Positions 49,877-64,000 of a stretch of 64,000 nt of DNA are shown here, in pieces (position 1 is the stretch's first letter; the number at the start of each line of letters is the position of its first letter). The notes beneath the pieces were generated by a model, which had not been told where the DNA came from, did not search any database, and worked only from the letters and a program-made list of their open reading frames with translations. Origin of the DNA: Bacilli bacterium. GTDB lineage: Bacteria > Bacillota_I > Bacilli_A > RFN20 > CAG-826. Position numbers and translations under genes: made by a program. The DNA is taken from positions 65,791 to 129,790 of the forward strand of contig JAFVCC010000114.1 of assembly GCA_017479485.1 (NCBI GenBank). Reading direction: 5' to 3'.

Positions 49877-50084
49877 TTCGCAAATCCGCCCCGTTTTGGC
49901 AAAACAATGTGACGGAACGCCGACAAAATAATGTGACGCGCAACACTTTTCGGGCGCTCGCGGAAGCTTCCCGGCGCGGCATAATGCGGATGGATGAAAT
50001 CGGACGAAAACGGATGGATTGTATCGGCCGACGACATTTGCTATAGAACTTTTTCGAAAATGACCTCATAACACGCGTTTTTGC

Positions 50085-50159
50085 TTTATGTTTCCCTTAG
50101 TTCCAAGCCCTAACACAGGGCATGTGGAGTCCATCGCTTCGCTGACGCGTAAGCAATAG
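50085..50159 (+). pseudogene. relic 3' end of a rumA/rlmD-like gene
   Basis: In-frame FMFPLVPSPNTGHVESIASLTRKQ* resembles the C-terminal DMFPHTMHVESVASL of the intact gene at 48544-48590. The DNA core is CATGTGGA(A/G)TCC(G/A)T(T/C)GC(G/T)TCGCT. Confidence 0.45.
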
Positions 50160-50270
50160 GCCGCGCTCCAATAAAACACCTAGGAAAATCATCTGGGGCA
50201 TATTGCTTTCTGAACATTTAGGGAAGTATATTATAGGTGGCCTGGGGGAAACCTCATGGGCTACCTGAGC

Positions 50271-50294
50271 GCCGACAGTTACGTCGGCTTTTTT
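50271..50294 (+). terminator. rho-independent terminator downstream of the relic rumA end
   Basis: GCCGAC-AGTTAC-GTCGGC followed by TTTTTT. Confidence 0.7.
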
Positions 50295-50412
50295 AGAGCC
50301 TTATTGCTGTTGGGCGACAGAATAAGCTGGTGAATAAGTTAGGACTATATCGAAAATAAAAGATAATGTTTAATATAATAGACATTAACTTAATTTTTTG
50401 TATACTATAGGC

Positions 50413-50862
50413 ATGGAAAGCAAATTTGAAATTGGCCAAAAACTTAAAAACAAAAGATTAGATCTTAATTTGAGAATGGATGATGTCGCTAAAAAAGTGG
50501 GCATAACTAGATCCACTTTGTGGTCCATAGAAAATGGAAATGGTAACTACACAATTGATACCCTTCTTAGATTATTAAACTTTTTAAATATGTCTATTGA
50601 TATTGGTGCCCAAGAGCAAGGCATTAGAAGAAGAGCTACGAGAACTAATAGTGTTTTAGACAAAAAGATTAATAGATTCATCGTTATGTGTGTTGAACAA
50701 TATGCATCTAGCGTTAATCAAAGTAGTAGAACCATTTATAACGAACTTAATAAAGCCGGCATTATTGATGAATTAAAAGATGATTATGAAGATATGCATG
50801 GCATGTCTACTTATTCATTAAACGAATACATTGATAAGAGATTACAAGGAGGCGCAGCATGA
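50413..50862 (+). CDS. XRE-family HTH protein with DUF3791-like C-terminal domain
   Basis: N-terminal IGQKLKNKRLDLNLRMDDVAKKVGITRSTLWSIENG. The C-terminal half (FIVMCVEQYA...IYNELNKAGIIDEL...YEDMHGMS) follows the DUF3791 pattern. The ATG at 50413 lies about 7 nt after a TATACT box, so the mRNA may be leaderless. Confidence 0.75.
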   Translation: MESKFEIGQKLKNKRLDLNLRMDDVAKKVGITRSTLWSIENGNGNYTIDTLLRLLNFLNMSIDIGAQEQGIRRRATRTNSVLDKKINRFIVMCVEQYASSVNQSSRTIYNELNKAGIIDELKDDYEDMHGMSTYSLNEYIDKRLQGGAA

Positions 50863-51341
50863 TTTTATATCACGGCTCAGATGTCGAAGTTAAAAATCCA
50901 AGAATTATTAAATCTGAAAAAGGAAGAGATTTTGGTTGCGCTTTTTATGTAACTCCTATTAAAGAACAAGCTGAAAGAATGGCCAAAAGAAAGCAGAGGA
51001 TGAACAAAAGCGGCTCCGCTATTGTTAGTGTTTTCGAATTTAATGAAAAAGAAATAAATAACCTAAGATACAAATCGTTTAAAAACCCAGATTTAGAATG
51101 GTTGGATATGATTATTGAATGTAGGACCAACCCTTCTTTTAATCATGGCTACGATATAGTAGAAGGAAAAATAGCGGATGATTCCGTTGGTGAAACAATT
51201 CTTTTTGTAATTGATGGCGTTATTAAAAAAGAAGATGCTCTTGAAAGATTAAAGTTTCAAAAGATTAATTCACAAGTGGCCTTTTGCAGTGAAGAATCAC
51301 TAAAAACAATTAGATTTATTAATAGCTATGAGGTCAAATAA
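50859..51341 (+). CDS. DUF3990 family protein
   Basis: 160 aa with the MILYHGS...RDFGCAFYVT...QAERMA pattern typical of DUF3990. AAGGAGG RBS and an ATGA overlap with the upstream gene. Confidence 0.75.
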   Translation: MILYHGSDVEVKNPRIIKSEKGRDFGCAFYVTPIKEQAERMAKRKQRMNKSGSAIVSVFEFNEKEINNLRYKSFKNPDLEWLDMIIECRTNPSFNHGYDIVEGKIADDSVGETILFVIDGVIKKEDALERLKFQKINSQVAFCSEESLKTIRFINSYEVK

Positions 51342-51556
51342 TGGAACACGTCCTTTCTAAAACTATTCTCATTTCTCAGACCATCGAACTTATTGCAAAA
51401 AAGTATAAGTTGAGCATTGAAGAAGCTAGAAATAGATTTTATCAATCTGACGTTGTTGAAATGTTGGATGATGATGAAACAGGCCTTTATGGTGAATCAG
51501 CATTATATTTATTGTCTTTATATGAAAACTATGAACTTAAAAATAAGAAAAAATGA
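51341..51556 (+). CDS. DUF3791-like small protein
   Basis: 71 aa, overlapping the upstream stop (TAATG). Helical, with a LYGESALYLLSLYE motif. Confidence 0.65.
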   Translation: MEHVLSKTILISQTIELIAKKYKLSIEEARNRFYQSDVVEMLDDDETGLYGESALYLLSLYENYELKNKKK

Positions 51557-51588
51557 TATATCTCTATTGTAGTATTGACACACGTCGA

Positions 51589-51865
51589 GACGGTCGTTCT
51601 GCTGTCAAGGAAATGAGGCTAAGGTGCTGAAAAGGGCTTGAAATCAAGGCATTTGAGGGTTTCAGTCGTCAGTGGGAATGTAGATAAATTTCCGCAGAGC
51701 GAGAGAGCAAAATCGAGGAAATCCGCTGCTGTAACTCTCGTTTCGCTATCAAGGGTAAAAATATGAGATTGAGGCTATCGGATTGTTGTCATTAGAGGGT
51801 TTTCGAGAGGTTGAAACTCTCGTTCTGCTGTCAAATCGGGCTGTAACTGTAGTTTCGCTGTCCGG
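51589..51865 (+). repeat. four imperfect copies of a ~22-nt motif (AACTCTCGTTCTGCTGTCAA-like)
   Basis: Copies at 51589-51610, 51731-55, 51813-37 and 51843-65. A fifth, weaker copy lies at 53083-53105, downstream of the kinase gene. Confidence 0.6.
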
Positions 51866-51883
51866 AACTTAGGAGGCATTTTC

Positions 51884-52921
51884 ATGTTTACAATCAATGT
51901 TGATGATATTAACAGCATCCTTCAGGATTATGAAATAACAATCAAATGTGTCTCTTTCAGCGAATTACAAAGATATCATTACGAAAAAGATGATCCAACC
52001 TCTAAGGAGGTTCGACTGATTATCAAAGCTGAACTGGAAGATTCTCATTCGCTTGTTATTCGATTTAAGAATGAATCGGATGCACCTATTGAGACGATAG
52101 AAGCTCAGAGCCGGTTTGCAGCTTTATTGAAGGCACATGGTATTCAAACGCCGAATGCCTATGCTTCAAAAGGGTTTTATGCTCGCCAATACCAAATAAA
52201 CGAATACGATGTAGTGGTTACGGTTGAGGATTTCGTTTGCGGGGAAATTCATCTTGTTAATGCCGAAATAGCGGAAAAGACCGGTAAGCTGCTTGCCAGA
52301 ATGCATAATATAGCTGAGACCGAGGATTTTCATGTTCAATCTGAGGTGCTGTTTAATCCGCTGAAAAGCAATGATCTATTTGATTTTGAAGCGTTTGCTG
52401 CAAACAAAAATAAACTTATTGAAATTGATGAGGATTTATATTGCAAAATCTGTCAGGAACATGAGCTGCTCCTACAAAAAATAACCGCTTTTGAAAAAGA
52501 TCCGAGTTACGCTGTTCAAGGTGATTTAAGTGATTGCAACCTTTATATGACCCGAACCGGGGAGATCGGCGTATTTGACTTTAACCGCTGCGGGGATAAT
52601 AACCTGTATTTTGATGCAGTAATGCAGGCTCTTTATATAGCTCGGCTGATGGATTATCCGGAAAAAATAGCCGGTAATCAGGAGCAGATGATCTTGAGGG
52701 CGTTTCTGAAAGGCTATCATCAGGAGCGTCCGTTTACAGAGCGGCAAAAAGAAGTGTATCCATATCTGTATGCGATCATATCTGCCTTTTGGCTGGGCGA
52801 TATGAAATTCAACAACGATAGTTTGGAAAATGCGATCAAAGAAGATGATTTCTCTGCGATTCATCATTGGATGGAGACGATCTTGGAGCGAGCTCGCTTA
52901 CGTCAGCTTATGCCAATATAA
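51884..52921 (+). CDS. phosphotransferase-family (APH/CotS/choline-kinase fold) protein
   Basis: 345 aa with an AGGAGG RBS. Brenner-like motif QGDLSDCNLY (Gln replaces the usual His) and a DFN metal-binding motif (GVFDFNRCG). Confidence 0.75.
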   Translation: MFTINVDDINSILQDYEITIKCVSFSELQRYHYEKDDPTSKEVRLIIKAELEDSHSLVIRFKNESDAPIETIEAQSRFAALLKAHGIQTPNAYASKGFYARQYQINEYDVVVTVEDFVCGEIHLVNAEIAEKTGKLLARMHNIAETEDFHVQSEVLFNPLKSNDLFDFEAFAANKNKLIEIDEDLYCKICQEHELLLQKITAFEKDPSYAVQGDLSDCNLYMTRTGEIGVFDFNRCGDNNLYFDAVMQALYIARLMDYPEKIAGNQEQMILRAFLKGYHQERPFTERQKEVYPYLYAIISAFWLGDMKFNNDSLENAIKEDDFSAIHHWMETILERARLRQLMPI

Positions 52922-53304: not shown

Positions 53305-53371
53305 AAAAAGACATAAAAAAGGGGGCTGTAACAAAAGCCCCCTAATCATCAGGAGGTTTTGTTACAGCCCC
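53305..53371 (-). terminator. rho-independent terminator of peptide gene P1
   Basis: A 15-nt perfect inverted repeat GGGGCTGTAACAAAA (53322-36) / TTTTGTTACAGCCCC (53357-71), followed on the minus strand by a T-run. Confidence 0.7.
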
Positions 53372-53434: not shown

Positions 53435-53728
53435 TTACGAAATTGGCTTCTCACCAAAAATGTGGCCGCAACTTTTACACCTGCTAGCTATCCACCAAAT
53501 AATTCGTCCGTTTTGATCTGGCGCATCATATTTCCAGTTCGAAAGATAATCGCTATGGCAGTTTGGACATCTTTCGGTACAACCACCACCAGAAGTAGCT
53601 TCTAATTGCTCATCGGTGAGTTCAACACCTTCTTGTTTAGCAAGAGCGAGCATTTCTTCTTGATTCTTGCACGCCTTGACCTTGGCGATTTGCTCTTCAG
53701 TCAAGCCCTTAAGCAATTCTTCTCTCAT
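53435..53728 (-). CDS. Nif11-like double-glycine leader + zinc-ribbon core peptide, paralog P1 (97 aa)
   Basis: Leader MREELLKGLTEEQIAKVKACKNQEEMLALAKQEGVELTDEQLEATSGGG. Core CTERCPNC-x26-CKSCGHIFGEKPIS. ATG at 53728 with a GGGGGAA RBS. Confidence 0.8.
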   Translation of the reverse strand: MREELLKGLTEEQIAKVKACKNQEEMLALAKQEGVELTDEQLEATSGGGCTERCPNCHSDYLSNWKYDAPDQNGRIIWWIASRCKSCGHIFGEKPIS

Positions 53729-53956
53729 GAATATTTCCCCCAAATTTATTCCATTATATTCAACCGCTAACACAAATGCGACGTAAAAGGGGAAAGGCCC
53801 CCGAAGCGATAGACAAAAACTTCTATCTCAAATAATTAACACAGACAATTTACACACAATATAAATTAGATCTATCTCTAATGTGGACCCTTTCCTTGAT
53901 GCCACATCCAAGGCAATCGTTTGATATAATGAGTGTAAATAAGAAGTAATCCAAAT

Positions 53957-54256
53957 ATGAAAGAAGAATTACTTAAAGGCTTAAGCGAAGAACAAGTCGC
54001 CAAGGTTAAAGCATGTAAGAATCAAGAAGAGATACTTAAAGTTGCTAAAGAAGAAGGTCTTGAACTCACTGACGAACAATTAGAAGCCGTTTCTGGTGGC
54101 TGCACGGATAGAGAAGGTCTTATCTGCCCACACTGTGGTAAAAGTGATTACTATCAACGTCTATGGGGTAGCACATATGACACTTATGTTTGTAAAGGCT
54201 GTCATGAATGCTTTTATTACATTAAAGAAACAGGTCAAACAGCGAAACATTGTTAA
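53957..54256 (+). CDS. Nif11-like double-glycine leader + zinc-ribbon core peptide, paralog P2 (99 aa)
   Basis: Leader MKEELLKGLSEEQVAKVKACKNQEEILKVAKEEGLELTDEQLEAVSGG. Core CTDREGLICPHC-x18-CKGCHEC...HC. An extended -10 TGATATAAT lies upstream. Confidence 0.8.
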   Translation: MKEELLKGLSEEQVAKVKACKNQEEILKVAKEEGLELTDEQLEAVSGGCTDREGLICPHCGKSDYYQRLWGSTYDTYVCKGCHECFYYIKETGQTAKHC

Positions 54257-56090: not shown

Positions 56091-59000
56091 ATGAACAAAT
56101 TATTCAGAAAGATCGGCATGGCACTCGTCGGTATGGCCATGGCGGTCGGTGTTAGCGTTGCTATTGGAAGCAATAGAGAAACATTGCCTGTTACTGCGGC
56201 AGCTGAGACTACTACATATACATTGAATGGTGAATCATGGACTTCTGCAGCCGGCAATTGGACAAGCCTTGAAGACTTGGACGGTTCAGTTGCTACTGGG
56301 AGATATGCCGTTACTTCAAGTAATCCTGCGGCCGTTTCGCCAGACAGTTATAACAACATTAGTTCCATTGTAGTTACAGGCACTAAATCAAGCAAGGGTG
56401 CGAGCACCGTTGAGATGCTTTATGGTCCGTCATCATCAGGGCCGTGGACAACCCTTGGATCAAAGAGCTTTGCAACAACAATGACTTGGAGTCCTTCCGA
56501 TGTTGCAGGATATTTAAAGATTCAAACTACATATTCAAAAGCTAACACTTATATTGCCAGCATTGCCGTTACTCATGACGAGGCGGGCGGAAGCGACCCA
56601 TTGATTAGTGTCGTTACAACAAAGGTTTTGGCTCCAAAAAACACCGCGGTAACTTTAAGCGCTGAGACCGAAAACGAACCAGATGGTTATACGATCGCTT
56701 GGTCAACATCTGATGGTACTTTATCTTCGACAAGTGGGAATAGCACAAGCTTCACCGTATCCGATGCTAAAAACGTAGGTGATGAAGTCACGATCACTGC
56801 CGACTTGAAAAATGGAAGTGGAACCACCGTTGCTTCAAGAACCAAATCTTTATACGTTTCAACGAAATCTGGTGAATCGATTGCGCAAGCGATCCCAGCC
56901 AGCGAATTAAAAACTTTGGTAGTTACTAAAGGTTTAACGTTGGGCACTAATGTCCACGTCAAGGGATTTGTTACTACTTATACAAACGCTACAACAGTAT
57001 GGCTTGGAGACGAAAAAGGTGGATCGAACCAATTTGAGTTATATGGTTCCATCACAAACGATACTGGAAACGCACTTGCCAAGGATAAGTTTGTTGTTGC
57101 TCATGGTACACCAGTCAAATTCAACTCGACCGCTGAATTCAATGGCACGACCGTTATCGATAGAATTGATTATGTATCTTTAGGAGACACAGAAGTTGAA
57201 CTTAATAACACAAAATCTTATACATTAACCGCAAATGCTACTGGTGATGTTGTTTGGACAACTACTCCAGGTACAGGCTCGGTTTCTTTAACCAATCAAA
57301 GCAATAGCGGCGTTACTGTTATGGGATCTTCTGTCGGTACAGCTACCGTTACTGCAACAGTAGGCAATTACTCGGCTTCTTGTGAATTCACGGTTTTAGA
57401 ATATGCCGAAGACTGGACGTTCGTTTCAATTGCCATTGTTACCAGTGAAGGCTTTGTTAATTCTTATCAACAAGGCGCCACTTTTGTCAAAACGGGTATC
57501 GCAGTTAACTATACCGAACACAGTGATACATTAGGTAAGAACAGAACAATAGATAGAGTTAATGACGCCACATTTAATTTTGACGCCAACAAGAATACGG
57601 TTGGCCAGTTTAATTTAACTGCTACCTATGGCGGACACACATCTTCAAATACTGTTACCATCACTATTACAAAAGCTCCTGGACGCATCGATTTTGGATC
57701 TGCATCTGGCAATTATAATTTCACAACCGATTATTCCGAGAATCCTTTTGAAGATAATTTAGGTAGCGTTGTTACAAGGGATATAACAACTGCTGGTAAT
57801 ACCTCTGCAACTCAAATTGGTAGTTCGGGAAAAGCTTCAACCGTTATTGTTGCTATTACTTTCGGCGAAAGAAAAGGCGTTGAAGGCGTTACTGTAAATC
57901 TTGCTACATCTCAAGCAGCAGGAACGGTATCGGTATCAGTTTATGGAGATACAACTAACGATGCTATTCTCTCGGATTCTGTTACCGGAAATTCCGCTCA
58001 AAGTGTCACAGTATCCAATTCTTATGAAACAATCAACGCTAACGCCATTCATGTCAAATTGGAAGGAACCACCGGCATTTGTTTGAAATATATCAGCTAC
58101 TTTGTCGGCGATACAGTGCAAGAGTTTGATACTGCATCATTCACATCTCTAACAATTAAAACCCCTGCAACAGATACTGTATTCAAAGTAGGACAAAAAT
58201 TCTCTACAGCTGGGTTGGTATTGACCGCAACCGATGGCGTTAGTTTTGAAAAAGACTTCTCATCTGGGTTTACAACAACATTTGATGCCAACAAAACATC
58301 TGCTTTTGAAGAAGGGGATGTTGGCAATAATAAAACTGTCACCATTTCATTAACGATCGGCTCAACAACCAAAACTGTTAGTTATACTATTGATGTCATT
58401 AATCCACCTACATATTCAAAAGTTACTGATTTTTCTACTTTGTATGAAGGCGCGAAAGTATTGATCGTCAACACAACAAACGAAGTTGCAATTGGAACAT
58501 ACAATGTTGGTTCTTATTACAATGAAGAGAGTGTTACTTTTGATGATAAAGATGCCACTGTTATTGCTGATGGCGGATCTGCAACAGAGTTCACTGTGAG
58601 GATTTTCGGGGATAGGGTTGCCTTCCAATATGGTGTTAATTATCTTAGCTACAACGGAAGCGGAAATAATGCACATCAGACAACCGTTCTCGGCGAAAAT
58701 GCATCATGGACATACAACGACACTGGATTGTTATCAAGCACATCTGGACGTTATTTGGAAAGCAATCATGGTGCAACAAGGTTTGCTTGCTATACCGCTT
58801 CGCAGACAAAAGTTGAACTATATATTTCATCGGCTTCAACTAAAACCGATGCTTTAGCCGCTGATACGTTCACCTATCGTTATCTCCACATGAGGGATTA
58901 TCAGGGGTCCGAAGGGGTCGCTGGTTCTAACTATTGCCTAAACAACGGTGATGGCGCCGGTAAGAATTACTTTGCCGATGCAGCAGAAGCATATGCCTCT

Positions 59001-59255
59001 TTAGAGCCAAGTGTTAAGGCTGAATTCAAGAAAAACACGGAAGCCGTCAAGAGGTTCAATGCTTGGGCCGCTGCCAACAGTAAGTCGATTGACCTCGACA
59101 CCGGCATAGTCTCTGCCGCAGGTGCTAACCGCGTTGACTTCGGTGGCATTGCTTCCGACCCCAACCTCCCCCTCATCATCACCTTCGTTGCCATCGGCAC
59201 AGTCGCTGCCGGAGGCGCCTTCCTCTTTGTCCGTAAACGCCGTAACGAGGACTAA
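56091..59255 (+). CDS. large secreted/surface protein with Ig-like (Big_2-type) repeats and C-terminal TM anchor
   Basis: 1054 aa with an AAGGGAGA RBS. It has a signal peptide, a Thr/Ser/Asn/Gly-rich beta-type sequence, a Big_2-like segment (…GTATVTATVGNYSASCEFTV), and a C-terminal hydrophobic helix plus RKRRNED without an LPXTG motif. Confidence 0.85.
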   Translation: MNKLFRKIGMALVGMAMAVGVSVAIGSNRETLPVTAAAETTTYTLNGESWTSAAGNWTSLEDLDGSVATGRYAVTSSNPAAVSPDSYNNISSIVVTGTKSSKGASTVEMLYGPSSSGPWTTLGSKSFATTMTWSPSDVAGYLKIQTTYSKANTYIASIAVTHDEAGGSDPLISVVTTKVLAPKNTAVTLSAETENEPDGYTIAWSTSDGTLSSTSGNSTSFTVSDAKNVGDEVTITADLKNGSGTTVASRTKSLYVSTKSGESIAQAIPASELKTLVVTKGLTLGTNVHVKGFVTTYTNATTVWLGDEKGGSNQFELYGSITNDTGNALAKDKFVVAHGTPVKFNSTAEFNGTTVIDRIDYVSLGDTEVELNNTKSYTLTANATGDVVWTTTPGTGSVSLTNQSNSGVTVMGSSVGTATVTATVGNYSASCEFTVLEYAEDWTFVSIAIVTSEGFVNSYQQGATFVKTGIAVNYTEHSDTLGKNRTIDRVNDATFNFDANKNTVGQFNLTATYGGHTSSNTVTITITKAPGRIDFGSASGNYNFTTDYSENPFEDNLGSVVTRDITTAGNTSATQIGSSGKASTVIVAITFGERKGVEGVTVNLATSQAAGTVSVSVYGDTTNDAILSDSVTGNSAQSVTVSNSYETINANAIHVKLEGTTGICLKYISYFVGDTVQEFDTASFTSLTIKTPATDTVFKVGQKFSTAGLVLTATDGVSFEKDFSSGFTTTFDANKTSAFEEGDVGNNKTVTISLTIGSTTKTVSYTIDVINPPTYSKVTDFSTLYEGAKVLIVNTTNEVAIGTYNVGSYYNEESVTFDDKDATVIADGGSATEFTVRIFGDRVAFQYGVNYLSYNGSGNNAHQTTVLGENASWTYNDTGLLSSTSGRYLESNHGATRFACYTASQTKVELYISSASTKTDALAADTFTYRYLHMRDYQGSEGVAGSNYCLNNGDGAGKNYFADAAEAYASLEPSVKAEFKKNTEAVKRFNAWAAANSKSIDLDTGIVSAAGANRVDFGGIASDPNLPLIITFVAIGTVAAGGAFLFVRKRRNED

Positions 59256-59276: not shown

Positions 59277-59310
59277 AAGGCCTCCCGGGGATTCCTAGGA
59301 GGCCTTCTTT
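59277..59310 (+). terminator. rho-independent terminator after the surface protein gene
   Basis: AAGGCCTCC ... GGAGGCCTT stem followed by CTTT. Confidence 0.65.
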
Positions 59311-59323
59311 GAAGGATCAAGTG

Positions 59324-59917
59324 ATGCCGAACGTACCGAGGAAAGTGGTGCAGTGCGATAAGGAAGGAAACGACCTACGCACCTTTAACTCCGCCAAGGA
59401 GGCGGCGCTTTCGCTTGGCTTTGCTACGCCTAATGCCATCAACAAGGCCGCGAGACACGGCCACTGCGCCTTCGGCTATCGTTGGAGATACGCCGACATG
59501 CCCCTTTACATCAAGCCTGAGGGAACGCCCGGGAAGAGTAGGGCGATCGTGGCCATCGGGGGAAATGGCGCCGAGGAGACGTTCCTAAGCATATCCGAGG
59601 CCTCTAGGAAGCTTGGCATCGGGATTACTGCCATCGAGAGCGCGCTCCTGATGGGCTGTAAGGCCAAGGGATACCATTTCCGTTACGAGGGTGAGGCGCT
59701 AGCTAAGTCTTATAAGCACGAGAGACACGGGAGGAAGGTCGTCGCCATCGATGATGATGGCAGGATCGTCGCTGAATACCCATGTGCGATGGAATGCGCG
59801 AGGTCACTAGGCGTGATCAAGGCCGCTATATACCGCTGTCTTAGGGAAAAGGACTCCAAGGCGAAATGCAAAGGTCATAGGCTTAGATATAAGGACGAAT
59901 ACATAACTGAAGAATGA
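59324..59917 (+). CDS. protein of three tandem NUMOD1/IENR1-like DNA-binding modules, no nuclease domain
   Basis: Three ~55-aa repeats of the pattern (R/K)xVVxxDxxGxxxxxFxSxxEAxxxLGxxxxxIxxxxxxx...G(Y/H)x(W/F/L)RY. AAGGA RBS. Start at the ATG at 59324 (the GTG at 59321 is possible). Confidence 0.7.
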   Translation: MPNVPRKVVQCDKEGNDLRTFNSAKEAALSLGFATPNAINKAARHGHCAFGYRWRYADMPLYIKPEGTPGKSRAIVAIGGNGAEETFLSISEASRKLGIGITAIESALLMGCKAKGYHFRYEGEALAKSYKHERHGRKVVAIDDDGRIVAEYPCAMECARSLGVIKAAIYRCLREKDSKAKCKGHRLRYKDEYITEE

Positions 59918-59971: not shown

Positions 59972-62215
59972 TTATTTCTCTTTCTTCTTTAACTCGGAAT
60001 AATAGTTTTCGATTTTGCTTCTGGCTCGGACATAATACTTTTCTAGGCCCGGATCGAACTGTTTCCCCATGTTGGAAATAATGATGTTGTTGGCGTCCTC
60101 AAAGGAGAATTCGTCTTTGTATACCCTTTTGCTCACCAGGGCATCATAAACGTCTGCGATCGCCATAATGCGTGCCTCTAGGGGTATTTCGTCGCCTTTG
60201 AGGCCGTTAGGATAGCCTTTGCCATCCCACCTTTCGTGGTGATAATGGGCAATGTTGACCGCAATTTCTTCAAAGCCCTTATCGACGACGTCTTCTAAGA
60301 TCTGTCTGACGATGAGAGAACCCTCTTTGGAATGGGTTTTCATAATGGCGTATTCTTCGGGGGTGAATTTGCCCGGTTTCCGTAGTATCGCGTCATCGAT
60401 CGTTATTTTGCCTAGATCGTGCATCGGAGCGCTTTTGATGATGCTTTGAGAAAAGGAGGAGCTGATGTTCAAGAATGGATCGTCCATCATTTCTTGAACC
60501 AAGAACTTGACGACGTCGCTCGTTCTTTTGATGTGACCGCCCGTGGATTTGTCTCTTCCTTCGACCATCGTGGCCATGCCATAAAACAACTTATCCTGAA
60601 CCTTGATTTCTCGGTTCTTGACCGTTGAGAACACAAAGAAGAAAACAAATTGCGTCCCGATGATTAATAAAGAACTAAAGATGAGGGCAAAGCTGATTTC
60701 GCCGATGTTGACCTCGCTACTCTCGGTCGCGGTTTTGAACACCCAGGAAGTGATGCCAAAAACGATCAGGATGAATAAGCCGAACAGGGCAATCATGGAA
60801 TTGCCGAACATCCTCTTTTTGTCTTTTTTGACCAAAAAGCCGTAATATCCAAAGCCGATCGCCGCCCAAATAATGAAGATGAAGATGGATTCTTTTGCCA
60901 GATAATCGGCATTAATGAAGCTGCTGGCCATGACGGAAATGGCAAAGGCCGCGCCAACCACCAAACCCGCTACGCTCGAGATAAGGCCTTCTAGGTTGTT
61001 GTCCTTTTTGGCCTGGGTAAAACTAATCGCGGAGATATAGGTATAAACAATGATGCCGCAGAAGGTATTCACATCGACGATCCAACCGATTAATACCCTG
61101 CCGAAAAATAGCATCAACGCCGTCACGACAAGAATGAAGATGATGACGTTTCGCGGGGCCTCGTTTTGATCCAATTTGGCAAAGCCCTTAAAGAAAACGC
61201 GATCTTCGGACATCGTTTGGATTAGGTTGGATAAGGCGACGATATTGCCGATCAAGCTCGTCATGATGATGGCGCTTAAGGCGACGACGAACATCACTAG
61301 TCCCCACGTGCCTAAATAGTGGTGCATGACGTAGAAAGCGGGGATGCCGTCTAAGCCGCTTAGCGAGGACGAAGAAGTCAGGTATTCATACCAGTTGGCG
61401 TAATCGCTGGGGAAAACGCTGATGGACAGCATGCAAATCAAAATATAGATCACCGCGGTGACGACAACGGAAGCGACCAGCACCTTAAAGACGTTTTTGT
61501 GCCTGAATTTGAAGTTTTTGGAAGAGTGGGAGATGTTTTCAAACCCAATAAATGCCCAGGGCATCATGCCGATAACCCCAACGACCTGAGAGAACTCGTT
61601 GCTTCCGTTACTGGCGAAGTCTGGCTTATAGGACTCGATGCCGCCCTTATGCATGACCGCGGCGACAATAAAGCCGGCCACAATCAAAGATATGAATATT
61701 AAGACCAAGCCCGACTGGATCCCCGTCGTGATTTTCCTTTTCAGCAGGCAAATGCCACCAAAGAGCAACAAGAAAAACAGCGATAATAGGATTTCACCTA
61801 ACCAAACATCGTATCCGCCGAGCACATAGTGGAACCCGAATTGGAACGTGGAGCCGAATACGTACCGCGCAAATAAAGCGAAAGAAGATACGTTTGCCCA
61901 CAAAATCGCGGCATAGGTGATGATTAAAAACCACGCCACCAAGAAGGCATGGTCACCTCCCAATGTGTTTTTGGCGTAAGTGTAAATACCCCCATTGCTG
62001 TCCGGATATTTGTTGATCATATAGTGGTAGTTATAAGCGACCACCAACATGATCAAAGTGCCGACAATAATGCCGATAACGCTGCCTAGAGGGCCTGCCT
62101 TGCTTAAAAAAGAGCTGCCCGTAACGACGAACGAGCCCCATCCGATCGCCGTGCCGATGGATAGGGAGAACGCCCCCAAAGCGGATATGGATTTATTGGA
62201 CTTCGTATGACTCAT
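59972..62215 (-). CDS. APC-family amino-acid permease fused to a C-terminal HD-GYP domain
   Basis: The N-terminal ~470 aa form a 12-TM APC-type permease, followed by extra TMs and then an HD-GYP domain (HDLGKI..., HHERWDGKGYP, IADVYDAL). The ATG at 62215 forms an ATGA overlap with the upstream gene. The TTG at 62233 in the track is less likely. Confidence 0.85.
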   Translation of the reverse strand: MSHTKSNKSISALGAFSLSIGTAIGWGSFVVTGSSFLSKAGPLGSVIGIIVGTLIMLVVAYNYHYMINKYPDSNGGIYTYAKNTLGGDHAFLVAWFLIITYAAILWANVSSFALFARYVFGSTFQFGFHYVLGGYDVWLGEILLSLFFLLLFGGICLLKRKITTGIQSGLVLIFISLIVAGFIVAAVMHKGGIESYKPDFASNGSNEFSQVVGVIGMMPWAFIGFENISHSSKNFKFRHKNVFKVLVASVVVTAVIYILICMLSISVFPSDYANWYEYLTSSSSLSGLDGIPAFYVMHHYLGTWGLVMFVVALSAIIMTSLIGNIVALSNLIQTMSEDRVFFKGFAKLDQNEAPRNVIIFILVVTALMLFFGRVLIGWIVDVNTFCGIIVYTYISAISFTQAKKDNNLEGLISSVAGLVVGAAFAISVMASSFINADYLAKESIFIFIIWAAIGFGYYGFLVKKDKKRMFGNSMIALFGLFILIVFGITSWVFKTATESSEVNIGEISFALIFSSLLIIGTQFVFFFVFSTVKNREIKVQDKLFYGMATMVEGRDKSTGGHIKRTSDVVKFLVQEMMDDPFLNISSSFSQSIIKSAPMHDLGKITIDDAILRKPGKFTPEEYAIMKTHSKEGSLIVRQILEDVVDKGFEEIAVNIAHYHHERWDGKGYPNGLKGDEIPLEARIMAIADVYDALVSKRVYKDEFSFEDANNIIISNMGKQFDPGLEKYYVRARSKIENYYSELKKKEK

Positions 62216-63087
62216 TTTCTTTTGGGAAGGCAAGCCAAAATGTCCTCTTTGGGGATGCTGACGAAGATGTGGACCAATTCTTCGTCGAAGTCTTTGTTGA
62301 CCCCGTCTTGAATTGCGGCGATCGCCGCATCGTAGTCCATATCCTTGATCAGTTTGGAATAGGCGTCGCAGATGGCGAGCATTTTGCTCGGCAAGGGGAT
62401 GGAATCGCCCTTTTTAAAGTAGTAGCCGGTGCCATCGACCTTTTCGTGATGATATAAAAGCCAATCGCTGATGTAATCAAACGACTTGACGCCCCTTAAT
62501 AAACGAACGGTCACTTGGGGGTGGGCCCGCACAATCTCCTCTTCTTCGGGGGTTAACTCACCTGCTTTATCCACGATTTCCTGAGGAATGCTGGATCTGC
62601 CCACATCATGAAGCAGCGCGGCGTATTCTATGCTGACCAAGCTATATTCGCCTTGGATTTGCCTTGGGAGATATTTATAGAACACGTCCATTAGGTTTTT
62701 GACGTGCAAAACGTGGCCTTCGATATGCTGACCGCGCGTATCGATGATGTCCGCCAAAACCTCAGTGATTTCTAACGACCTTTCTTTGGACGTTTGTAGC
62801 AACCGAGTCAACAAAACGATGACCACGGAAACAAACAAGCTGCCGAAGAACAAGATTAAGCTGGTGATCAAGTGCGGGTCGGCGTATATGCTGACGAAGA
62901 TGTATCCGCCCAAGAAGAAGACCAATAAGACGAGACCAAAGCTCACCATGACGTTGTCCCTTCTAACGCCGCCAGAAATAACGTCCCTCATCCGCAGCAT
63001 GAAGCGAATGTAAAAGCCGATGTTCACTGCCATGAGCAAGGCGCCAACGATAATGAGCGTAACAATCACGACATTTAAGGGCTCCAT
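62212..63087 (-). CDS. membrane-anchored HD-GYP domain protein (GYP motif reads GYY)
   Basis: 291 aa from the ATG at 63087 (MEPLNVV...). Two TM helices, then LLHDVGRS, HHEKVDGTGYY and ICDAYSKL. The 126-codon upstream extension in the track is rejected. Confidence 0.8.
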   Translation of the reverse strand: MEPLNVVIVTLIIVGALLMAVNIGFYIRFMLRMRDVISGGVRRDNVMVSFGLVLLVFFLGGYIFVSIYADPHLITSLILFFGSLFVSVVIVLLTRLLQTSKERSLEITEVLADIIDTRGQHIEGHVLHVKNLMDVFYKYLPRQIQGEYSLVSIEYAALLHDVGRSSIPQEIVDKAGELTPEEEEIVRAHPQVTVRLLRGVKSFDYISDWLLYHHEKVDGTGYYFKKGDSIPLPSKMLAICDAYSKLIKDMDYDAAIAAIQDGVNKDFDEELVHIFVSIPKEDILACLPKRK

Positions 63088-63313
63088 GCCTACAACTATA
63101 TAACGAATTTTGAAAATAGTTGCTATTTTTAAAATTTTAAGAGTGTCAACTAAACAGGCGAAAAGGGCTAAATTCCCATCACCCGTTTTGTAAATACTCC
63201 GATTTCTTTTTGAATTTGGGACGGGGCATTGATAACGTTTCTCGATTAACTGGATTAATAAATGAATTCCTGAGCCTATTTGGTACAATGAAGAAAACAG
63301 GAGTTCACTAAAA

Positions 63314-63610
63314 ATGAAAGAAGAACTATTTAAAGCCCTAACCGAAGAGCAGATGGCCAAATTAAAAGACTGCAAAAATGTCGAAGAATTGCTCGCTCTT
63401 GCCAAACAAGAAGGCGTTGAACTCACTGATGACCAACTCGAAGCCGTCAACGGCGGCTGCGGCACTACTACGGGGTATTGGGGATGCCCTTACTGCGGTT
63501 ATCGTTGGGGCGCCATGAGTTTAGGACATGGCCGCGCTAGATGCTTTGGCTGTGGCGGTGAGTTTAACGATCACGAAGCAAAATATTATCCAATCAATAA
63601 GGATAAATAA
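63314..63610 (+). CDS. Nif11-like double-glycine leader + zinc-ribbon core peptide, paralog P3 (98 aa)
   Basis: Leader MKEELFKALTEEQMAKLKDCKNVEELLALAKQEGVELTDDQLEAVNGG. Core CGTTTGYWGCPYC-x15-CFGCGGEF.... An extended -10 TGGTACAAT lies upstream. Confidence 0.8.
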   Translation: MKEELFKALTEEQMAKLKDCKNVEELLALAKQEGVELTDDQLEAVNGGCGTTTGYWGCPYCGYRWGAMSLGHGRARCFGCGGEFNDHEAKYYPINKDK

Positions 63611-63679
63611 TTCGTCAAAGAGATATCTATAAGCGATAGGTATGTTTGCTAAATGATAACGATCGGAGTGAACAATTAT

Positions 63680-63946
63680 ATGAGAGATGAATTATTAAAA
63701 GGCCTAAGCGAAGAGCAAATAAAGAAATTAAAGGAATGCAAAACACAAGAAGAAATCATAAGCCTCGCGAAAGAGGAAGGTGTTGAATTAACGGATGAAC
63801 AATTAGCGTCTATCTCTGGCGGAGGATGCAGAGGTGGCAGATGCCCTAGATGCGGCAGTGACTATACCTGCTGCTACGCTATTGGCAAATATGAATGTAG
63901 TAAATGCCAATATCACTGGGGAGAGGATGAATACATCCCAAATTAA
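63680..63946 (+). CDS. Nif11-like double-glycine leader + zinc-ribbon core peptide, paralog P4 (88 aa)
   Basis: Leader MRDELLKGLSEEQIKKLKECKTQEEIISLAKEEGVELTDEQLASISGGG. Core CRGGRCPRC-x14-CSKCQYHW.... Start at the ATG at 63680. Confidence 0.8.
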   Translation: MRDELLKGLSEEQIKKLKECKTQEEIISLAKEEGVELTDEQLASISGGGCRGGRCPRCGSDYTCCYAIGKYECSKCQYHWGEDEYIPN

Positions 63947-64000
63947 TTTCTATTAGCAAAAACTCTTAACAGATTTAGCTGATAAAAAAATAATAAAACC

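Follow-up and report, generated by a model that had tools for sequence, protein, structure and literature searches.

Nif11-like double-glycine leaders joined to zinc-ribbon-like cores: a large family of candidate secreted mini-proteins in uncultured rumen Bacilli

Nif11-type leader peptides, together with the NHLM export cassette (TIGR03796, TIGR03797 and TIGR03794), are known from the in silico work of Haft, Basu and Mitchell in 2010, cited in a study of the Lachnospiraceae C39 protease LahT150 (PMC6363468). For the latter enzyme, mutagenesis of the substrate has revealed that leader positions −4, −7 and −12 matter, whilst −3, −5 and −8 do not, and that the last 13 residues of the leader are enough for cleavage (PMC6363468). 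Herein we consider four small genes, P1 to P4, that encode leaders of this general type joined to cysteine-rich cores, and which are found on a stretch of 64,000 nucleotides (nt) from an uncultured Bacilli bacterium (the window; contig JAFVCC010000114.1 of assembly GCA_017479485.1, positions 65,791 to 129,790), itself a portion of a 226-kb metagenome scaffold. Amongst class II bacteriocins and pheromones of the Blp, Pln and ComC types, double-glycine leaders are similarly removed by an ATP-binding cassette (ABC) exporter with a C39 domain, which cuts after the GG. It is probable, in our assessment, that P1–P4 are the dispersed cargo of a double-glycine (Nif11-like) leader secretion system, and that their products are cysteine-rich mini-proteins that would be cleaved by the exporter as they are secreted.

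P1 (97 amino acids (aa); 53435..53728, minus strand) and P2 (99 aa; 53957..54256, plus strand) are divergently oriented, with P3 (98 aa; 63314..63610) and P4 (88 aa; 63680..63946) positioned further along the window on the plus strand. Each begins with a leader of 48 aa (53585..53728 for P1, ending in TSGG; 53957..54100 for P2, ending in VSGG; 63314..63457 for P3; and 63680..63823 for P4), and the leaders of P1, P3 and P4 display 71–81 % identity to that of P2. Leader-to-leader comparisons by tblastn within the window return E values of 1e-17 to 1e-27, a similarity far beyond chance, and therefore the four are real paralogues, confirming both the open reading frames (ORFs) and the shared leader proposed in a first-pass annotation of this DNA. 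No further family copies are detected in the window by tblastn with the leaders. The first core cysteine directly follows GG in P2 and P3, and GGG in P1 and P4. The cores themselves take the form G-C-TER-CPNC-x26-CKSCG (P1), C-x7-CPHCG-x17-CKGC (P2; 54101..54253), C-x8-CPYCG-x14-CFGCG (P3) and G-C-x4-CPRCG-x13-CSKC (P4), with gaps of 3, 7, 8 and 4 residues between the first cysteine and CPxC, and of 26, 18, 15 and 14 residues between the two knuckles, for P1 to P4, respectively. The pattern C-x(3-8)-C-P-x-C-x(14-26)-C-x-x-C, as recorded at first pass, is exact in all four proteins; the fuller CPxCG form of the first knuckle is found in P2, P3 and P4, but not in P1, which has CPNCH. Outside of the cysteines, the four cores are not alignable to one another.

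The assignment of gene starts is supported by local signals. For P1, the mechanical ORF reaches a GTG at 53773; however, a ribosome-binding site (GGGGGA, 53734..53741, minus strand) precedes the ATG of the MREELL start at 53728, and so the latter is taken as the true start, in line with homologues, all of which begin MK/MR-E-E-L-L. The mechanical ORF of P4 begins at 63653, and the gene start was taken at 63680. An extended −10 promoter-like element, TGATATAAT (53922..53930, plus strand), identified as a consensus match only, lies 26 nt 5′ of the P2 start codon, whilst a hairpin resembling an intrinsic terminator (8 bp, 6 GC) with a T-run is found ~90 nt past the P1 stop (53320..53343, minus strand). 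Terminator-like sites in this region number 5, against 1.0 expected from shuffles. These signals speak against P1–P4 being non-functional remnants or chance ORFs, an idea to which decayed family copies lend something, as one is frameshifted in locus L005 (loci fetched from relatives carry the prefix L), another is truncated in L089, and an 11-aa remnant is present beyond the window end. All four ORFs are nevertheless intact and have orthologues at 88–99 % protein identity in other assemblies, with P2 occurring as an identical protein on 12 public contigs, and in GCA_034186525.1. Due to this conservation of orthologues, the explanation is effectively refuted, and we assign it next to no weight.

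With regard to the leader, Pfam Nif11 (PF07862) is the top Pfam match for each of the four proteins, scoring 22.6, 23.5, 21.2 and 23.9 bits for P1 to P4, respectively, such that the gathering score of 23.8 is exceeded by P4 only. TIGR03798 (leader_Nif11), which is the top NCBIfam match for three of the four, returns 13.8–21.8 bits against a cut-off of 32.3. Matches to the Nif11 models span only their C-terminal part (model positions 21–53 of 68), and weaker matches are to double-glycine bacteriocin signal models, amongst which TIGR01847 (bacteriocin_sig) yields 16.1 bits for P3 (cut-off 15.7). Alignment of 111 sequences reveals that L37 (−12), L42 (−7), G47 and G48 are invariant, with V45 (−4) at least 90 % conserved. 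The invariant and near-invariant positions of the leader are thus those that a C39 double-glycine protease needs, and the proposal of a Nif11-like double-glycine leader, which was to be checked against profiles of this kind, is supported by the top Pfam match and by the −12, −7, −4 and GG residues. Beyond these, a cysteine at position 20 (K-x-C-K) is invariant in P1–P4 (codon 54014..54016 in P2), and is present 29–30 residues before the end of the GG in 339 of 347 unique family members.

P1–P4 are members of a very large family, as yet undescribed, from uncultured rumen bacteria. With P2 as the query, 796 homologues were found, almost all of 85–100 aa, the few that are named being 'hypothetical' or 'Nif11 family protein'. 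Using a leader-only profile built from the four window leaders, 2167 cluster representatives were matched (E ≤ 1e-3) among 1.84 billion. The best 150 of these are 39–159 aa in length; almost all start with the leader or carry it close to the N-terminus, and none has it fused to a larger protein. Amongst these, consequently, the leader does not appear as a domain of larger cytoplasmic proteins, an outcome that would have spoken against a secretion leader. At least 268 family copies were confirmed in one-genome-per-species data. Their hosts are rumen metagenome-assembled genomes (MAGs) labelled 'Bacilli bacterium' and 'Erysipelotrichaceae', from goat, yak, deer and sheep, along with a few Lachnospiraceae and Pseudobutyrivibrio. 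Among the best 80 loci, 8–12 separate ones come from each of several MAGs, and tandem arrays contain up to seven family genes per 20 kb. No description of the family is found in the searchable literature, exact leader strings included, in agreement with the earlier suggestion that it falls within no described class. One contig from a 'Candidatus Saccharibacteria' MAG (L045) harbours near-identical P3 and P4 orthologues and a third family member, and most likely represents Bacilli DNA that was mis-binned.

Across the family, the first core cysteine is found 0–3 residues past GG in 342 of 347 unique members, and a CxxC-x6-28-CxxC arrangement, with a median spacer of 19, is present in 293 of the 347. 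Within this latter set the first knuckle contains CP in 264 cases, and at least one additional cysteine precedes that knuckle in 290, meaning that the typical core possesses five cysteines rather than four. Core subfamilies recur across genomes, as exemplified by a core with SVVSDVGDFFNPFDCPECGSNKVEAVKGKGNLFQCQSCGFKWRE that is found at eight loci, each in a different MAG. For orthologue-like pairs (n=194), median identity is 0.85 for the core and 0.83 for the leader; when P2 is compared with homologue P0001, 50 of 51 core residues and 37 of 48 leader residues are identical. As orthologous cores are conserved as much as leaders, they are not freely hypervariable. The first-pass description of hypervariable, prochlorosin-type cores is therefore retained only in part: the cores of paralogues are indeed unrelated, but those of orthologues are conserved, subfamilies recur, and no LanM-type enzyme is found among the annotated recurrent neighbours.

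The genomic surroundings of family members in related organisms provide the link to export. When all ORFs of 90 aa or longer at 80 loci with family genes were clustered, the commonest non-family clusters were an ABC group (10 genomes), a protein of ~397 aa (9), an S41 peptidase (9) and a protein of ~130 aa (8). The second-commonest neighbour cluster (91–161 aa, 18 genomes) has no Pfam match, and is a candidate for a shadow ORF on the strand opposite the conserved leader. In ten or more related genomes, family genes form part of a recurrent operon that consists, in order, of precursors, a gene for a HipA-like protein of 397 aa, often a precursor with a short core, a gene for a 464-aa radical-SAM/SPASM protein, a gene for a 130-aa protein, two ABC genes (ABC1, 722 aa; ABC2, 727 aa), a STAS gene and, in several, SpoIIE/HATPase_c_2. 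ABC1 scores 844 bits against TIGR03796 (NHLP-family export ABC with peptidase), which it matches over the full length (E 6e-254; cut-off 853), and its N-terminus carries QLEALECGAASL followed by GHFVV; as both motifs are intact, the catalytic cysteine and histidine of the C39 domain are present. ABC2 scores 648 bits against TIGR03797 (cut-off 709). The 130-aa protein has one transmembrane helix and resembles a stub of the NHLM HlyD component, with a weak match to the first 80 positions of that model (22 bits vs 156). Precomputed Pfam annotation similarly places Peptidase_C39 alongside Radical_SAM/SPASM in these operons.

Precursors of the zinc-ribbon type are themselves found within the operon; in L081 and L085, for instance, they separate the radical-SAM gene from that of the stub. 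A connection to the window is provided by L089 (GCA_017635755.1), where orthologues of P3 and P4 are located 5.4 kb upstream of an exporter operon, in a region with 89 % nucleotide identity over window positions 63231..63956. The same operon was found in further samples from the study to which the window belongs. Thus, both a C39 ABC exporter and a radical-SAM/SPASM enzyme, which the first-pass annotation had thought should be sought elsewhere, do accompany family genes in relatives, the latter in most operons.

A number of further genes are found alongside these operons. A histidine kinase and response regulator adjoin one of them. In L085, L087, L089 and L043 the STAS gene always follows ABC2, and a SpoIIE-type phosphatase and a HATPase_c_2 kinase domain, either fused or adjacent, are found beside the operon; given that these genes accompany it, a partner-switching module seems to be wired to the secretion system. 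S41-peptidase lipoproteins are present near family loci in 9 genomes, including L063 (4940..7099), L064 (1065..3242), L082 (10369..12546), L084 (409..2193) and L040 (7185..8963). They are 590–770 aa in size and bear a lipobox (e.g. LPAVSC), and in 5 of 12 cases ~300 bp or less separates them from a family gene. These lipoproteins could have a processing or immunity function, or could merely be another expanded surface-protein family.

The most constant accessory gene of the operon encodes the protein of ~395–397 aa, which has no sequence match in Pfam, NCBIfam or the PDB at E ≤ 0.001, with Pfam HipA_C appearing weakly at laxer thresholds (best E 7e-5). Its AlphaFold2 model, with a predicted local distance difference test score (pLDDT) of 93.9, displays a HipA-type kinase fold, and Foldseek relates this to HipA (4pu5, E 3e-8; 3dnu, TM 0.57) and also to CtkA. 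Residues D279, H281 and N284, corresponding to the D-x-H-x-x-N motif of HipA, and the downstream D303 are invariant in 98 sequences. The sequence profile gave nothing against the PDB, and it was the fold comparison that identified the protein as HipA-like. The 464-aa Radical_SAM plus SPASM protein, encoded between the HipA-like gene and the exporter, falls outside all curated maturase families, with top matches of ~100 bits against cut-offs of 340–650; amongst these weak matches are the peptide maturases DynA, WgkB, PapB and StsB.

Two conserved classes of short core are attached to the family leader, namely 'GG(A/G)C[ST]..D....HRKIES' and '...P[IV][IV]NPF'. Short cores account for 10 of 248 family ORFs in the fetched loci, and all 10 are located inside exporter operons. 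Examples are found at L043 9709, L074 6533, L079 10309, L081 2059, L085 7164, and L087 6648 and 8889; these are 60–70 aa in total, with cores of the type ACSDSTEDSKKDHKRYDK or GCDSSSTEEKGKKRRIEA. The cysteine beside the cleavage site is also found in these short non-ribbon cores. In three species, a short-core gene with a variant leader (KACDDV.DL.QLAKDEG) is immediately upstream of the radical-SAM gene, a placement which suggests that its product is the cognate substrate of that enzyme. The operon-resident short peptides may be either pheromones or cognate enzyme substrates, and, in combination with the regulators, their confinement to the operon recalls pheromone-controlled class II bacteriocin loci.

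The presence of a radical-SAM/SPASM enzyme in most operons raises the question of whether it acts upon P1–P4 as well. Were their cysteines thioether donors, installed as sactionine or ranthionine cross-links by this enzyme prior to export, then P1–P4 would constitute a new sactipeptide or ranthipeptide class, an explanation with which the maturases amongst the enzyme's best matches are consistent, as is the near-universal cysteine at the cleavage site, short non-ribbon cores included. It is nonetheless unlikely, as the operons of L038 and L079 have no radical-SAM gene, and that of L031 has neither this nor the HipA-like gene, yet zinc-ribbon-type precursors are present in all three. The gene immediately upstream of that for the enzyme in three species is, moreover, that of the variant-leader short peptide, whilst the strict CPxCG...CxxCG spacing and confident beta-ribbon prediction of the longer cores are typical of metal sites, and the donor cysteines of known sactipeptides cluster in the N-terminal half of the core. 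On the reading that we favour, in which P1–P4 are exported cargo, the probable targets of the kinase and radical-SAM enzyme are the short peptides, the near-universal cleavage-site cysteine, or both.

As for the structure of the core, AlphaFold2 modelling of P2 with the family alignment produces four strands within residues 53–99, with block mean pLDDT values of 72–90. Comparison of the family profile with the PDB returns marginal matches to the zinc ribbons of TFIIS, Rpb9 and RPA12 (E 0.003–0.03), with a 'small CPxCG-related zinc finger protein' also amongst the matches; for P1–P4, all Pfam zinc-ribbon models stay below threshold. From the CPxC/CxxC motif and this fold prediction, the zinc-ribbon reading of the first-pass annotation is well motivated, and the core is modelled as an autonomous zinc-ribbon-like beta-ribbon.

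Zinc ribbons are, however, classically intracellular, and one might therefore propose that P1–P4 are small cytoplasmic proteins, such as regulators or nucleic-acid binders, in which a Nif11-like helical domain precedes the zinc ribbon, the GG being a mere linker and the short-core peptides the sole true substrates of the exporter. Such an arrangement would accord with the distance of most family copies from any exporter, and the invariant leader cysteine could fit a folded two-domain protein. The P2 model, conversely, contains no packed leader–core unit, with pLDDT values of 44–58 for the leader and below 50 for the GG linker. Ribbon members also have the −12, −7, −4 and GG determinants in a form identical to those of the operon-resident short peptides, some are themselves operon-resident, and larger fusions of the leader are absent from the best 150 profile matches. 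We accordingly judge a cytoplasmic role for P1–P4 to be quite improbable.

From these data we infer the following route for the exported cargo, based on comparison of sequences and models. Each gene would yield a precursor of ~90–100 aa, the amphipathic C-terminal part of whose leader (L−12, L−7, V−4, G−2 and G−1) would be recognised by the C39 cysteine-peptidase domain of the exporter. This exporter, presumed to be encoded elsewhere in the window's own genome, would comprise the NHLM-type ABC1 and ABC2 together with the 130-aa membrane-anchored HlyD-like stub, and would remove the leader after the GG as export proceeds. The released core of 40–51 aa, with cysteine as its first or second residue, would then fold extracellularly into a two-knuckle beta-ribbon on the four CPxC/CxxC cysteines. 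Zn(II) is the most likely means of holding these together, as the rumen is anoxic and reducing, with two disulfides as the other option. The repertoire of paralogues, in which each core is conserved among orthologues, could function as secreted effectors, be they bacteriocin-like toxins or signals, leaving the short non-ribbon peptides or the cleavage-site cysteine as the likeliest targets of the operon-encoded kinase and radical-SAM enzyme.

Several observations weigh against this reading. By tblastn, the 64-kb window contains neither exporter nor kinase: with ABC1, ABC2, the HipA-like kinase, the HlyD-like stub and an S41 peptidase from related loci as queries, a set that did not include the radical-SAM enzyme, only a generic ABC ATPase at ~24.4–25.0 kb was returned; for these queries, the absence of exporter and maturase from the window that was claimed at first pass holds. 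Likewise, tracing members of the HipA-like cluster did not bring up the exporter operon on the scaffold of the window or in GCA_034186525.1. The leaders of P1–P4, and both ABC proteins of relatives, score below the curated cut-offs of TIGR03798, and of TIGR03796 and TIGR03797, respectively. Foldseek comparison of the core with the PDB returned nothing significant (best match a Trm112 ribbon, E 0.33, probability 0.8), the domain being too small for this method. The model accounts for neither the invariant leader cysteine nor the near-universal fifth core cysteine, as a four-cysteine ribbon requires neither, and we know of no precedent for a secreted Zn(Cys)4 ribbon.

Should such a precedent nonetheless be found here, P1–P4 would represent an unrecognised secreted class, in which a Nif11-like leader exports an autonomous Zn(Cys)4 ribbon that is stabilised by metal, as opposed to disulfides or cross-links. 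We advance this more specific possibility tentatively, and with less than even confidence; stabilisation by metal would fit an anoxic, reducing habitat. If correct, uncultured rumen Bacilli would possess dozens of such paralogues per genome, and the HipA-fold kinase and orphan SPASM protein would represent new peptide-tailoring or control functions, directed at the near-universal cleavage-site cysteine and at the short peptides of the operon, which may be pheromones.

The immediate surroundings of P1–P4 have features of their own. Around window positions 50001..52000 and 50398..51341, G+C content falls to 0.36, compared with ~0.50–0.56 in the first 50 kb, and an HTH_3-DUF3791 gene is located there with a DUF3990 gene; P1 and P2 are located in this lower-GC, variable part of the window. 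An APH-family phosphotransferase of 345 aa (51884..52921, plus strand), convergent with P1, was considered as a conserved kinase partner and rejected, because the relative L003 has P2 in the absence of both P1 and the APH gene, and because the latter does not recur among annotated neighbour clusters. Further along, a 1054-aa ORF (56091..59255, plus strand) has zero Pfam matches and looks like a variable surface-protein slot, given that L003 carries a different protein there (662 aa, Big_3-containing). The adjacent gene at 59309..59917 (plus strand; 202 aa) encodes NUMOD1 and I-HmuI NUMOD-like DNA-binding modules and an HTH, with no recognisable nuclease domain, and is kept in L002 and L003. 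On the minus strand, 59972..62233 encodes an AA_permease fused to a C-terminal HD-GYP (HD_5) domain, an unusual transporter–phosphodiesterase fusion, and this is followed by a stand-alone HD-GYP protein (62212..63087, minus strand) that is divergent from P3; an HD_5 gene is also found near family genes in L005.

Downstream of P4, an 11-aa leader remnant (MRDELLKGLTK / MRDELLKRLTK) is present at L001 20156..20248 and from L003 10835. That of L001 is ~110–250 bp past the window end, just before a gene for a 759-aa LRR_5 protein. Synteny between L089 and the window ends at ~63990, and this break suggests that the DNA was rearranged where a family copy has decayed.

If the cores are exported, then this family constitutes a large and untouched reservoir of small secreted proteins, numbering thousands of sequences from metagenomes of rumen and gut, built upon a fold not known from outside of the cytoplasm and in which the uncultured Bacilli that produce it invest dozens of genes. 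Proteins of this kind could influence how rumen organisms compete or signal. The operon additionally supplies two orphan enzymes, the HipA-fold kinase and the SPASM radical-SAM protein, in a peptide-maturation context that is undescribed in the searchable literature. Due to the short length of the peptides, a separable protease domain and the mass shift that would accompany each step, the system is readily testable.

Considered against described systems, the type of leader and the type of exporter are already known, having been predicted in silico by Haft and colleagues and exemplified biochemically by LahT (PMC6363468). The zinc-ribbon core, the 48-aa leader that bears a cysteine, the HipA-fold kinase, the orphan SPASM protein and the scale of expansion are apparently new, as none was found in the searchable literature. 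The N11P/NHLM systems share with this family a helical Nif11-like leader with terminal GG, many paralogues per genome in which one conserved leader precedes differing cores, the location of most copies at a distance from a single export locus, and, at that locus, a C39-peptidase ABC1 beside an ABC2 that lacks the peptidase. They differ in that the leader of P1–P4 is just 48 aa, has an invariant cysteine and scores under the curated TIGR03798 cut-off; that the HlyD partner is here cut to a 130-aa stub; that the cores resemble zinc ribbons instead of lanthipeptides, azoles or any other known core type; and that the accessory gene found most constantly encodes a HipA-fold kinase.

Prochlorosins (ProcA/ProcM) and the LahA1-9/LahT system similarly combine Nif11-type GG leaders with one machinery that serves many cores (PMC6363468), and the Lah system is also from a gut Firmicute, its C39 peptidase-containing ABC transporter accepting any core (PMC6363468). 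Here, by contrast, Pfam and NCBIfam annotation of recurrent neighbour clusters from ~90 family loci, as opposed to whole genomes, revealed no LanM, LanB, LanC or LanKC-type enzyme, and the cores are of 40–51 aa, with a fixed cysteine framework and conservation between orthologues. Class II bacteriocins, which are unmodified or only lightly modified, resemble the family in their scattered effector genes and in a short peptide that is encoded with the exporter and regulators; their leaders, however, are 15–30 aa rather than 48 aa, and their cores are amphipathic helices in place of cysteine-rich beta-ribbons, whilst an immunity gene is unrecognisable here. Sactipeptides and ranthipeptides (ruminococcin C, freyrasin/PapB and SCIFF) have in common with it cysteine-rich cores, a SPASM radical-SAM enzyme and anaerobic Firmicute hosts, but the enzyme here lies outside curated maturase families and is missing from some operons, and the cysteine pattern is that of a metal ribbon. 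Finally, classical zinc ribbons (the TFIIS C-terminal domain, Rpb9, RPA12, Trm112 and archaeal CPxCG fingers) share the CPxCG...CxxCG motif, the spacer of ~19 residues, the aromatic residue that follows and a beta-ribbon predicted to have three or four strands; whilst the known examples are all intracellular, the cores of this family are joined to a secretion leader.

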